A stretch of DNA of 64,000 nucleotides, taken from assembly GCA_038897215.1 (NCBI GenBank), contig JAWAWX010000001.1:928001-992000 (forward strand), given 5' to 3'. The notes under the pieces were generated by a model, which did no database searches, had not been told where the DNA came from, and saw only the letters and a list, made by a program, of their open reading frames with translations. Made by a program: the position numbers and the translations under genes. The number at the start of each line of letters is the position of its first letter. Within the stretch, counting starts at the first letter, position 1. This document shows positions 21,075 through 33,062 of this stretch, piece after piece. Source of the stretch: Acidilobaceae archaeon (GTDB lineage: Archaea > Thermoproteota > Thermoprotei_A > Sulfolobales > Acidilobaceae).

Positions 21075-21340
21075 TCCCAAACCAGACAAGGGAGCCTTTT
21101 AAAGCGTTTAAAACACTCCCAGCGATGGAGCGGAGTAGAGCAAGCAAGGCGCTGTCATCGCTGATGGAGCGATGGCTGCGATGAAGCGGAATCCCGCGAG
21201 AGACTAGAGCGAGCCATCCCCAGCACCTAAAAACGTAACCAGAGTCCAAGAACGAAAGCAGGCCCCCGCCACGACAGCCAAGAAGCTTAAAACACCAACA
21301 CGACTAAAAATCAAGTGAGCGAAGAAACAGCCACGACACG
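21075..21340 (+). promoter_or_regulatory. CRISPR leader, copy 1
   Basis: Near-identical to 31697-31961; BRE/TATA-like AGAAGCTTAAAA about 50 bp before repeat 1. Confidence 0.8.
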
Positions 21341-21433
21341 GAATCCGACACATGGAGTTGAAAGGAGAATTCGAGCCAGTTCTCCCCGAGCCCGTTACAG
21401 AAAAATTAAGAATCCGGCACATGGAATTGAAAG
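21341..21433 (+). CRISPR. Orphan mini CRISPR array: 2 repeats, one 45-bp spacer
   Basis: GAATCCGACACATGGAGTTGAAAG (21341-21364) and GAATCCGGCACATGGAATTGAAAG (21410-21433); 24-bp crenarchaeal-type repeat ending in GAAAG. Confidence 0.85.
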
Positions 21434-21501
21434 GTTTACTCCCCGGTTATGTGTCGAGGGGAGAGAAGCTGGTAGGGGTTTGGTGCGTTTGTGTGTGGGG
21501 G

Positions 21502-30621: not shown

Positions 30622-31647
30622 CTACGCGATCACGTTGTCGAGAGGCTCTCTCCCAGACTCGAGCTCCGGAGCTGTGAGAGCTAGGAGGCGCTCGAACTCT
30701 CCCCGCTTCAGACTACACAAATGGTGGGCTACGGCTAGAGGGTGCGGGTAGCCGTCGTTCACAGAGAGCACGGCCAAGTCTCCAGCGATCTTCTCGGCTT
30801 CTTCGAGCGTAATCTGTCCGGGGACTGTTAGCTTGTAGGCTTTACCCCACGGGCTTAGAAGCGCGTAGAAGACCGTGTAGACGCTCGGCAACCCGCTAGC
30901 CGAGCTAGCGGCTTCGCTCTCGCTCACTGCCACGTACGGCCTAGCGGGCCACAGTATGCCTGGAGCTTTCGCGCTCTCTTCTCTGAGAACTCTCCACACT
31001 ATCAGGAAGTCGGGGACCTCCGCGTCTTCTCCCGCTATCTTCACTCTAACCCCGCAGTCTCTCACAAGCACTGGCTTGCTGACGTTCTTCGACACGAACA
31101 CTGCTCTAGTAGACTCTACGATCCTGCCGAGTTGCTCGAGTCTCTCTCTCCACCCTCTACTCAGGCTCTCTCCGAGAGGCTGCCTGGGAGAGACGAGTAT
31201 GGCTTCGACGAAGCTCTCATACGAGCCGTCGAAGAGAGCGTAGCCGGGCTTGAAGCCCCTCCTCATAGCTCTCTCCACAGTCCTGACCTCCATGTTCTTA
31301 GCCGAGTTGTCTAGAACCGCCTCCACGAGCCTCCTAAGCCTCCTCTCGCTCCTGCCAACAAGCTCGATAGCGCCAGCATCGGCATCAGTCTCGCTCCACA
31401 AGACGCCCCTGCTAGCGTGATAGACTACCGCAACCCCCTGAACAGCGTAGACAACCACACCCCTGAAGTTCTTATGGCGCCTACTACTATCACTCGCCAC
31501 GACGAGAAGGTCGCCGCCCCCACCCCCACTCAAAGGAACCCACTCCAGGCCCTCAACCCTCATCTCGCTAATCCTAGCCACAATCTCCTCAACACGACCC
31601 CTAACAAGCCGCATCCTATCGACAAGCTCCTCGAACACAGGCACCAA
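30622..31647 (-). CDS. NurA-domain nuclease
   Basis: VASDSS, LFDGS, VSK and GYPHPLAVAH motifs. Confidence 0.78.
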   Translation of the reverse strand: MVPVFEELVDRMRLVRGRVEEIVARISEMRVEGLEWVPLSGGGGGDLLVVASDSSRRHKNFRGVVVYAVQGVAVVYHASRGVLWSETDADAGAIELVGRSERRLRRLVEAVLDNSAKNMEVRTVERAMRRGFKPGYALFDGSYESFVEAILVSPRQPLGESLSRGWRERLEQLGRIVESTRAVFVSKNVSKPVLVRDCGVRVKIAGEDAEVPDFLIVWRVLREESAKAPGILWPARPYVAVSESEAASSASGLPSVYTVFYALLSPWGKAYKLTVPGQITLEEAEKIAGDLAVLSVNDGYPHPLAVAHHLCSLKRGEFERLLALTAPELESGREPLDNVIA

Positions 31648-31696
31648 GCAAGACCCGCAACAAACAGCACGAAGCCCAAGCTAATAAAGCAAGCAC

Positions 31697-31961
31697 TCCC
31701 AAACCAGACAAGGGAGCCTTTTGAAGCGTTTAAAAAACACCCTCAGCGATGATGCTGAGCAGAGCCAGCAAGGCGCTGTCATCGCTGATGGAGCGATGGC
31801 TGCGATGAAGCAGAATCCCACGAGAGACTAGGGCGAGCCATCCCCCAGCACCAAAACATAACCAGAGTCCAAGAACGAAAGCAGGCCCCCGCCACGACAG
31901 CCAAAAGCTTAAAACACCGACACGACTAAAAATCAAGTGAGCGAAGAAACAGCCCGACACG
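31697..31961 (+). promoter_or_regulatory. CRISPR leader, copy 2
   Basis: Near-identical to 21075-21340. Confidence 0.8.
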
Positions 31962-32577
31962 GAATCCGACACATGGAGTTGAAAGAGACCTGTCAGCGAC
32001 TCAGTGGCGTCAAAGAACAGGGAGAATCCGGCACATGAAGATGAAAGGGATATCTACTAATCACTGCCGGTCTTTAACCTCTGGCCGCACACCATGTATA
32101 GTGGAGGTGTTACTGTGTTTGGCTGAGAAGTGTCCTCCCGAGAAGACCATCCTCGACCAAATGTACGGCATCAGGGTGTGCGCCGAGACCGGGGAGGTCG
32201 TCGAGGAGTCGGTGGTGTCGGATGACGCGGAGTGGAGAGCGTACACGGCTGAGGAGAAGGCCAGAAGGGCTAGGACCGGCGGTGTTGTCTCTATCACCGA
32301 GCCGAATATGGGCATAGGGGCTGTCATCGGGCCGGTGAGGCCGCCCGGGGGCAGGAGAGTTAGGGGGATCTCGAGGTCTCCGGACGCGGCTAGAGTGCGG
32401 AGAGCTTTCAAGAGAATCCGATACGTGGGATAGAAAGCTTGAGGTGCAGGTGCCTCACTGCCTCAGTGGTCTGTGAGAGGAATCCGACACATTGAGTTGA
32501 AAGGCTTATCGGATAATGGGAGATCTCTCGATTCTCGGCGGCCTTAGTGACAGGAATCCTGTGCATGGGATTGGAAG
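31962..32577 (+). CRISPR. Orphan degenerate CRISPR array: 5 repeats, spacers of 38, 366, 42 and 50 bp
   Basis: Repeats at 31962-31985, 32024-32047, 32414-32437, 32480-32503 and 32554-32577, with 0, 3, 5, 1 and 7 mismatches to GAATCCGACACATGGAGTTGAAAG. Confidence 0.88.
32119..32433 (+). CDS. Truncated transcription factor B (Zn-ribbon, B-reader and B-linker only; 104 aa) encoded inside the CRISPR array
   Basis: CPPEK...CAETGEVVEE...EWRAYTAEEKARRARTG; RBS GGAGGTG 32103-32109; TTG start; TAG stop inside repeat 3. Confidence 0.8.
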   Translation: MAEKCPPEKTILDQMYGIRVCAETGEVVEESVVSDDAEWRAYTAEEKARRARTGGVVSITEPNMGIGAVIGPVRPPGGRRVRGISRSPDAARVRRAFKRIRYVG

Positions 32578-32696
32578 AGAAGTGGGGAGTACTGAGGGCT
32601 CCGGTTTTCCAAGCGGGTTTGGTGCGTTGAGTTGAGGGGTTTGGGCGGAAGGTGTATTAGCGTTTTCTGCTTTCTGGGTGTCTTCTTGCGGGGGGC

Positions 32697-33062
32697 TTGG
32701 GGGTGATGTGTGTGGAGGGTTCTGGTGTGGGTTCTGAGGTTTCTATTGAGGAGTTTCGGAGGCTTGACTTGAGGGTTGGGAGGGTTGTTGTTGCTGAGAG
32801 TGTTCCTGGTAGTAGTAAGTTGTTGAGGCTTGTGGTCGATATTGGGGGTGAGCAGAGGCAGGTTTTGGCTGGGATCGCTAGATGGTATAAGCCGGAGGAG
32901 CTTGTGGGGAAGCTTGTCGTTGTTGTCGTTAACTTGAAGCCGAAGGTTATGGCTGGCTTGGTGAGTCAAGGCATGATTCTAGCCGCTGGCTGCGGGCCCG
33001 GGGATAGGCCTGTCTTGGTTACCGTAGAAGAGCCTGTGCCTCCCGGCTCGAGGGTTTGCTGA
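32697..33062 (+). CDS. Stand-alone OB-fold tRNA-binding protein (Trbp111 / MetRS C-terminal domain)
   Basis: DLRVGRV, KLLRL.VDIG, NLKPK, SQGMILA. Confidence 0.92.
   Translation: MGVMCVEGSGVGSEVSIEEFRRLDLRVGRVVVAESVPGSSKLLRLVVDIGGEQRQVLAGIARWYKPEELVGKLVVVVVNLKPKVMAGLVSQGMILAAGCGPGDRPVLVTVEEPVPPGSRVC

Follow-up and report, generated by a model that had tools for sequence, protein, structure and literature searches.

How does a gene-sized piece of a general transcription factor come to lie within an array of clustered regularly interspaced short palindromic repeats (CRISPR), and does it function there? The question is raised by the genome of a hot-spring archaeon of the family Acidilobaceae, which is assembled as a single contig of 1.16 Mb with a GC content of 54%. 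The window is a stretch of 64,000 nucleotides (nt) of this contig (assembly GCA_038897215.1, JAWAWX010000001.1, positions 928,001 to 992,000 of the forward strand), and coordinates are those of the window unless genome positions are specified. One spacer slot of a five-repeat array, called here mini-array B, is filled by an insert holding part of the 5' flank and the N-terminal codons of a gene for the transcription factor TFB. The open reading frame (ORF) of the insert is called the mini-TFB. The data support a captured, expressible N-terminal module of TFB. The mini-TFB is viewed, tentatively, as a captured passenger, and this reading is placed slightly ahead of that of a domesticated protein that binds RNA polymerase; domestication, and any regulatory role, are unproven.

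Anatomy of the array

Mini-array B is made of five direct repeats of 25 nt, located on the plus strand at 31961-32577 and 72-100% alike. A second locus in the window, mini-array A, carries the same leader without the insert.

31697-31960, plus strand: leader of mini-array B, about 93% identical to 21075-21340.
31909-31916 and 31929-31936, plus strand: A/T boxes CTTAAAAC and CTAAAAAT in the leader, just 5' of repeat 1.
31961-31985, plus strand: repeat 1 (R1), the reference copy, with the 3' end GTTGAAAG; identical to R1 of array A.
31986-32022, plus strand: spacer 1, 37 nt, with no other match in the host genome.
32023-32047, plus strand: repeat 2 (R2), 84% identical to R1, with G at repeat position 9 as in R2 of array A.
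32048-32412, plus strand: gene-sized insert in one spacer slot, both flanking repeats being full length.
32048-32118, plus strand: remnant of a tfb 5' flank, identified side by side with the tfb1 upstream regions of the host, the sister species and the sister genus.
32119-32433, plus strand: mini-TFB ORF, TTG start, 104 aa, with the TAG stop at 32431-32433, in repeat 3.
32413-32437, plus strand: repeat 3 (R3), 76% identical to R1, sharing T (position 10) and G (position 17) with repeat 5.
32438-32478, plus strand: spacer 3, 41 nt, unique in the genome.
32479-32503, plus strand: repeat 4 (R4), 96% identical to R1.
32504-32552, plus strand: spacer 4, 49 nt, unique in the genome.
32553-32577, plus strand: repeat 5 (R5), terminal, 72% identical to R1.
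32578-32660, plus strand: trailer, with GGTTTGGTGCGTT and then a G-rich run, both common to the trailer of array A.
21075-21434, plus strand: mini-array A, a paralogous locus with neither cas genes nor insert (same leader, R1, one 45-nt spacer, R2).

Repeats start 62, 390, 66 and 74 nt apart, leaving spacers of 37, 365/366, 41 and 49 nt. With at least three direct repeats (here five) and unique spacers, the locus is organized as a CRISPR array. An initial annotation of the window, made from the sequence letters, had called attention to an oversized spacer slot containing an ORF. Both were confirmed, as the slot measures 365/366 bp, against 37-49 nt in the other spacers, and the frame is open for 104 codons. 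The signals quoted at the time can all be read in the sequence: a CTTTAA box (32072-32077), the Shine-Dalgarno sequence GGAGGTG (32103-32109), 9 nt 5' of the TTG start at 32119, and a stop provided by a repeat. R3 supplies the last six codons of the ORF and its TAG, which results from the change to TAG of the TTG found in R1; a TGA comes next at 32440-32442. A GTG at 32101, in frame with the ORF, is an alternative start.

Identity of the insert

The insert consists of a tfb 5' flank of about 70 nt and about 98 codons of a TFB1-type N-terminus, which comprise the Zn ribbon, the B-reader and the B-linker. The ORF is 56% identical to the TFB1 of the host itself (335 aa; E=3e-38) and 58-60% identical to the TFB1 of the sister species, and aligns without gaps between the CPP motif and about residue 98-101. 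Homology stops a few residues before S-x-E-K-N-I, the conserved opening of the cyclin core. In full-length TFB the two cyclin folds, with a C-terminal helix-turn-helix, bind TBP and the TFB recognition element (BRE). Cyclin folds and helix-turn-helix are absent from the ORF, and no remnant of the core was found downstream or elsewhere in the genome. The match to the TFB Zn ribbon and B-reader and the absence of the cyclin folds, both claimed from the start, are therefore upheld.

The Pfam family Zn_Ribbon_TF (PF08271) is matched weakly (E=0.0055; 16.7 bits, below the 29-bit cut-off), and the TFB Zn ribbon of PDB entry 1PFT is matched with E=9e-4. The AlphaFold2 model features a three-stranded ribbon at residues 10-30, with a predicted local distance difference test (pLDDT) score of 81-89, a short B-reader helix at residues 44-49, and a helix at residues 88-103. 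Zn-ligand cysteines are two (C5 and C21), not four, and the same pattern is found in the TFB1 of the host and of the sister species. Ribbons with two cysteines denote a non-canonical type of crenarchaeal TFB (PMC6101594). The B-reader (EWRAYTAEEK, in the pattern EWRAY...R.R.G) and the B-linker are present, and residues invariant across 20 orthologues are retained. These comparisons support the view that the insert corresponds to a TFB N-terminal module cut just before the cyclin core.

Assembly of the locus

The genome is derived from a metagenome, and a duplicated leader of 290 bp breaks short-read contigs. Both facts may raise the suspicion, voiced also in the initial annotation, that a tfb fragment was wrongly joined to the repeats by the assembly. 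Against this, a 17.6-kb Logan contig, taken from an independent assembly of a public run, is identical from R1 through the insert and R3-R5 up to the ribosomal-protein genes, and ends only at the duplicated leader. The identical ORF is encoded in nine public contigs, and 92-99% of the sampled words of an 801-nt query (31900-32700) were found in five DNA runs from two studies. With all junctions confirmed, misassembly is excluded for practical purposes, and the probability of an artefact is negligible.

Origin and selection

Phylogenetic analysis of the N-terminal region places the ORF inside the TFB1 clade of the host genus (94/95 support); on this placement, the mini-TFB derives from the TFB1 lineage of the genus. 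Its terminal branch measures 0.87 changes per site, about 20-fold more than that of the host TFB1 (0.044). Synonymous sites are saturated among mini-TFB, host and sister species, and the synonymous distance (dS) from TFB1 is about 1.3. At 49 degenerate codons specifying the same residue, differences number 23 between mini-TFB and host, 25 between host and sister, 30 between mini-TFB and sister. By these counts, the split of the mini-TFB dates from about the time of the genus.

Because of saturation, pairwise dS was replaced by an analysis at codons with an inferred ancestral state. At 38 codons identical in host and sister, the proportions of synonymous and non-synonymous changes in the mini-TFB are 0.62 (pS) and 0.23 (pN), with an omega of about 0.21; the omega of TFB1 is about 0.03, a rough value because synonymous sites are saturated. 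Changes hit 1 of the 19 columns that are invariant in 18 other orthologues, and 31 of the 64 variable columns (Fisher p=4e-4), and most replacements at conserved positions are by a similar residue (I by V, E by D, L by I). No indels or stops occur over 94 codons (282 nt); the chance that a neutral sequence would stay free of stops is about 0.11. GC content varies with a period of three along the codon (0.56/0.54/0.76).

These figures bear on the hypothesis that an ancient piece of the host tfb1 is decaying neutrally in the array, as a pseudogene fragment with a frame left open by luck. Such a relic might well branch within the TFB1 clade of the host genus and lack a TATA box, as the insert does (see below). 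Moreover, its divergence of about 40% at the amino acid level equals about 0.25 neutral changes per site, which is close to the raw divergence of R2, R3 and R5 (16-28%). Under neutrality, however, about 7 of the 19 invariant residues should have changed, where 1 was observed (binomial p about 1e-3); synonymous changes per site far exceed non-synonymous ones; and the lack of indels in 282 nt and the strong period-3 pattern are both at odds with decay. A neutral relic is accordingly given a very low probability, and neutral decay in place, which the initial annotation had listed among the findings that would count against its own proposal, is rejected. The sparing of invariant residues, an omega of about 0.2 and the absence of indels indicate that the sequence evolved as a protein, for a long time and under a constraint that is TFB-like, but relaxed. 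The substitution pattern is thus evidence of past purifying selection on the mini-TFB.

Selection of this kind is also what a domesticated mini-TFB would display, i.e. a fragment long resident in the array as a working gene. The few, conservative changes at invariant columns, the omega of the mini-TFB branch and the frame free of indels and stops favour domestication, as do the predicted fold (ribbon, B-reader helix, C-terminal helix) and a long branch within the genus TFB1 clade, as expected after truncation. Yet the selection signal is neither datable nor placeable, and may all precede capture. Composition also speaks against long residence. The GC content at third codon positions is 0.76, against a host mean of 0.60. 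When set against size-matched windows of host genes, G at third positions (G3, 0.47) falls at the 99.4th percentile, and A (A3, 0.095) at the 1.3th; the ORF is atypical for a host gene. Codon usage of highly expressed genes was considered as the cause of the G3 excess, and rejected, since G3 is 0.33 in ribosomal-protein genes.

The 5' flank and expression

The 71 nt that separate the start codon from R2 derive from tfb as well. The TTTAACCTCT box (32073-32082) is common to the upstream regions of both TFB1 genes of the genus, and is followed by ATGTA, likewise found there. The segment GTGGAGGTGTT, which includes the Shine-Dalgarno sequence, is common to the tfb genes of the sister genus, and conservation of GGAGGTG is in keeping with a working gene. 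By contrast, the TATATAA box, common to TFB1 genes of four genera, reads CACACCA in the insert. Judged by these alignments, the cargo is a DNA copy of a tfb1-type 5' module in which the main promoter is damaged. Loss of the TATATAA box makes an own promoter of the mini-TFB doubtful; it tells against domestication, and expression from a TATA-like promoter of the insert, as suggested initially, is hence questionable.

Transcription may alternatively start in the leader, where the A/T boxes could act as promoter. The ORF is sense to the leader, and no run of at least five T's is found from leader to ORF, which makes read-through transcription likely. Evidence at the RNA level comes from a 182-nt contig from the sediment metatranscriptome of a different study, which matches 32169-32350, inside the ORF, at 100%, with a depth of 3. 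This contig favours domestication, but it is the only metatranscriptome piece over a region of 1.5 kb, comes from a single library, and may be DNA carry-over; in the same run nothing was found over leader, repeats or neighbouring genes. Two raw RNA runs yielded zero reads of the organism, but only about 3% of each run was sampled, and hence they provide no test.

Repeat variants and the route of entry

The leader copy of array A is located 10.6 kb upstream of the array B leader, and the two are about 93% identical over about 265 nt. The trailers of the two arrays also share GGTTTGGTGCGTT and the G-rich run, which indicates that whole loci, from leader to trailer, are paralogous. Array B has two variants of the repeat. 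One, found in R1, R2 and R4, has G at position 18; the other, found in R3 and R5, is marked by T (position 10) and G (position 17), which restore an AAUCC/GGAUU mini-hairpin. The two alternate along the array, which suggests a mosaic made by recombination, and not a simple decay in the direction of the trailer. Comparison of R2 with R3 shows 8 mismatches in 25 positions. Since they are different variants, no fresh duplication of a repeat accompanied the arrival of the insert. Acquisition by Cas1-Cas2 would imply a ruler-defined length and a freshly duplicated repeat, and neither was found (366 bp, against 37-49 bp; flanking repeats not freshly duplicated). Use of the R2/R3 difference as a clock for the insertion was dropped, because R3 shares derived bases with R5, and R2 and R3 were therefore not identical copies at the time of insertion.

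Repeats and insert may, in principle, have come in the opposite order. According to this alternative, a piece of a tfb paralogue was here first, and the clusters leader-R1-S1-R2 and R3-R5 (S denotes spacers) originated, or were seeded, to its left and right. A cassette made by leader, R1, spacer and R2 stands alone at array A, and the R3/R5 variant differs from R1 and R2, as the hypothesis would have it. R4, however, is of the R1 type, and both junctions fall at the ends of complete repeats. The trailer of R5 resembles that of R2 in array A, hence the duplicated locus extended over leader and trailer and enclosed the insert, and no remnant of the cyclin core flanks the array or is found elsewhere in the genome. 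A pre-existing remnant is held to be highly improbable.

Strand composition flips around the array. On the left (31400-31700) the plus strand is 64-75% A+C, on the right (32600-32900) 70-81% G+T, and the coding strand at the 5' end of each flanking gene is therefore G+T-rich on both sides of the array. Genome-wide, the first 105 codons are barely more G+T-rich than the next 105 (0.524 vs 0.506).

Cas genes and processing

Genes for Cas proteins are found about 930 kb from array B, at genome positions 2.8-23.7 kb. The main CRISPR-Cas region (genome 2,787-28,742) includes two type I-A interference modules (Cas3'', Cas3', Cas5a, Cas7/Csa2, Csa5), Cas1, Cas4, two Csa3 regulators, and a divergent Cas6-like ORF (43.8 bits, below the family cut-off of 58.65 bits). 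Two arrays of about 35 and 70 repeats, ending ...GGGAATTGAAAG, run outward from a shared leader in this region. Their repeat differs from that of array B, only the 3' TTGAAAG being common. Neither adjacent cas genes nor a matching Cas6 accompany array B, which is classed as an orphan in view of the distance of the cas genes (about 930 kb) and of their association with arrays of another repeat. No CRISPR direct-repeat family was matched by the repeats in an Rfam search, no significant hairpin was predicted for them, and a search of the host genome for self-targets of the array B spacers found none. Arrays of a relative of the repeat, with three mismatches, occur in a genome (G028) from a different family of the order. 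The array is real, but small, partly decayed, and orphan.

Processing matters for domestication, because the mini-TFB could be released from a longer transcript. Transcription would proceed from the CRISPR leader promoter, or else the CTTTAA box would give rise to a leaderless transcript, translated from the GTG at 32101. Cas6 cuts at R1 and R4 would then release an RNA of about 520 nt (S1-R2-ORF-R3-S3) with Shine-Dalgarno sequence, ORF and stop, while the decayed R2 and R3 would escape cleavage. The conservation of R1 (100%) and R4 (96%), which bracket the ORF, and the decay of R2, R3 and R5 fit this scheme. A canonical Cas6 cut, 8 nt from the 3' end of the repeat, would instead split R3 at 32429/32430, and the message would lose its stop codon. 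This weighs against domestication and also against the tidy release of a messenger at the flanking repeats proposed in the initial annotation; with cuts at R1 and R4 only, a complete message would remain.

Search for relatives and donor

The mini-TFB is a singleton. A near-length protein search of 5.8 billion protein clusters returned no second member, and in an exhaustive HMMER search of 1.84 billion representatives the ORF was alone in its own cluster. No homologue above 51% identity was found in IMG/VR and JGI metagenomes, and none above 60% identity in GTDB genomes. Database matches are either the ORF itself or ordinary full-length TFBs. Short HMMER matches were discarded as members of a mini-TFB family, as they look like frameshifted or cut-off TFBs. 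Related genomes had been suggested as a place to search for TFB fragments; no second copy was found in 40 relatives, which include the sister species, with a genome 82% complete. Upstream of the tRNA-binding gene of this species no repeat, leader or tfb fragment was found; NurA resides there on a different contig. Occurrence in one species only, in all databases searched, argues against domestication.

Comparison with known systems

Truncated TFB paralogues and oversized inserts in arrays are already known, and the insert is a variant of these. Crenarchaeal TFB1 of the two-Cys type is the closest relative, with 56-60% identity over ribbon, B-reader and B-linker, the same Shine-Dalgarno sequence and part of the 5' flank. 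Unlike TFB1, the mini-TFB lacks cyclin folds, and hence predictably binds neither TBP nor BRE; has only four residues before the CPP motif; has a branch about 20 times longer, with an omega of about 0.2 vs about 0.03 (the latter a rough value); and sits in a CRISPR array. Directly 5' of the host tfb1 is an ORF of 327 aa (L007:318-1301, plus strand) of the GHMP-kinase type, with intact GLGSSAS and GAGWGG motifs (by eye), which looks like a genuine mevalonate kinase.

Truncated TFBs of three classes have been reported in 16 crenarchaeal genera, and TFB3, the DNA-damage activator of Sulfolobales, depends for its function on both a canonical four-Cys ribbon and a coiled coil at the C-terminus (Feng et al. 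2018, PMC6101594; for TFB3 of Sulfolobales see also Schult et al. 2018, PMC6101591). The mini-TFB is similarly short and TFB-derived, and has kept the ribbon and lost the DNA-binding core; unlike TFB3, it features a two-Cys ribbon and a full B-reader, and no coiled-coil tail. The analogy with TFB3 drawn in the initial annotation consequently fails on ribbon and coiled coil, and the genome has a separate TFB3-like gene. The latter encodes a candidate TFB3 of 175 aa with a four-Cys ribbon (CPYC...CSSC) and a helical tail (L009:1126-1653, minus strand; genome about 1,016,165-1,016,692), and coexists with a two-Cys TFB1, as described for Crenarchaeota by Feng et al. (2018). Another paralogue (329 aa) is TFB2-like; its identity to TFB1 is 27%, its ribbon is degenerate, and no EWRAY motif occurs in its B-reader (L008:1402-2391, plus strand; genome about 579,842-580,831). 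That the host already has TFB1, a TFB2-like and a TFB3-like gene is a point against a domesticated mini-TFB.

Spacer-mediated recombination with phages was reportedly described by Varble et al. in 2019. Prophage integration into CRISPR loci is described in a preprint (bioRxiv 10.1101/2020.10.09.333658). As in large insertions at CRISPR repeats, the mini-TFB insert is gene-sized DNA bounded by repeats in an otherwise ordinary array. Unlike prophage insertions, the cargo derives from a housekeeping gene of the host lineage, and is not recognizable phage DNA; it carries a complete 5' expression module, is sense to the leader, and bears a signature of selection at the protein level. CreTA modules, which are Cascade-repressed pairs of toxin and antitoxin RNAs, were reportedly described by Li et al. 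in 2021. In these the small toxic RNA CreT is repressed via Cascade by CreA, a crRNA-like antitoxin that partly matches the toxin promoter, inside cas operons (crRNA stands for CRISPR RNA). Both CreTA and the mini-TFB are non-spacer elements embedded in a CRISPR locus, and expression could be tied to CRISPR-Cas activity; array B differs in having no cas genes nearby and, as candidate, an ORF that encodes a protein. Nothing CreTA-like turned up, though no dedicated search was made, nor one for a CreA-like degenerate guide; spacer 1 had no match in the 5' flank of the insert (blastn-short, E<=50).

Captured passenger or domesticated regulator

The reading preferred here, at somewhat less than an even chance of being correct, is that the mini-TFB is a captured passenger. 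A piece of 366 bp, made by promoter-proximal flank, Shine-Dalgarno sequence, start codon and about 98 codons, would have been captured between full-length repeats of an old, cas-less mini-array, most likely by recombination or integration at repeat borders, and not by ruler-measured spacer acquisition. The donor would be a fast-evolving TFB1 derivative related to the host genus, either a paralogue or a copy borne by a virus or plasmid, outside the genomes sampled to date. The insert is probably transcribed with the precursor of crRNA, from the leader. Translation from GGAGGTG-N9-TTG may yield a 104-aa protein made by Zn ribbon, B-reader and B-linker, which could dock on RNA polymerase, yet would be unable to bind TBP or DNA. 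Intact frame and protein-like substitutions would go back to the donor, and effects on the host, if any, such as mild competition with TFB1, would be unselected.

Several data are in line with capture. CRISPR arrays normally take up DNA of mobile elements. The insert fills exactly a spacer slot between full-length repeats; R2 and R3 are different variants, and the array is a mosaic; the mini-TFB is a singleton in every collection searched, and its third-position composition is foreign to the host; the TATATAA box of tfb1 genes is lost. Furthermore, a dS of about 1.3 implies the age of a genus, yet R1 and R4 have stayed intact and leader identity is still 93%, which fits divergence before capture; R1, R4 and leader are far better kept than neutral sequence of such age would be.

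Other observations sit less well with a passenger. No donor was found in any database searched. The insert is a tidy expressible module, which begins about 70 nt 5' of the start, retains its Shine-Dalgarno sequence, stops at the boundary of a domain, and is sense to the leader. A long branch with an omega of about 0.2 is natural for a truncated protein under relaxed constraint in place, and acceleration after truncation would explain the branch without invoking an unseen paralogue. The 94 codons have been preserved without a single indel or stop, and the sole RNA-library piece of the 1.5-kb region falls inside the ORF.

Domestication is accordingly regarded as a real possibility, with a probability nearer to one third than to one half. 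Ribbon and B-reader would bind the polymerase dock and cleft, making the mini-TFB a competitor of TFB1 that dampens global initiation or, less likely, a helper acting in trans. From what is known of the structure and function of TFIIB and TFB, a ribbon and B-reader without the promoter-binding core could occupy polymerase without recruiting it. A bolder version has the CRISPR array turned into an expression vehicle for a host-derived regulator. The leader would provide the promoter, Cas6 cuts at R1 and R4 would release the messenger of about 520 nt, decayed R2 and R3 would spare message and stop, and the product would bind polymerase without promoter DNA, coupling CRISPR transcription and Cas6 activity to global initiation, for example as a slow-down in infection. 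The complete chain is unlikely.

Significance

Interest in the mini-TFB is moderate at present, and would be high should expression and polymerase binding be shown. If the ORF works, it would be the first fragment of a general transcription factor expressed from a CRISPR array, a natural experiment on the effect of a free TFB ribbon and B-reader on archaeal RNA polymerase, and a new route from arrays to genes. If the ORF is a passenger, it still shows that DNA of gene size, including a complete module for 5' expression, can be captured at repeat borders, and a fast-evolving TFB1 derivative would exist somewhere in the hot-spring community, possibly on a mobile element.

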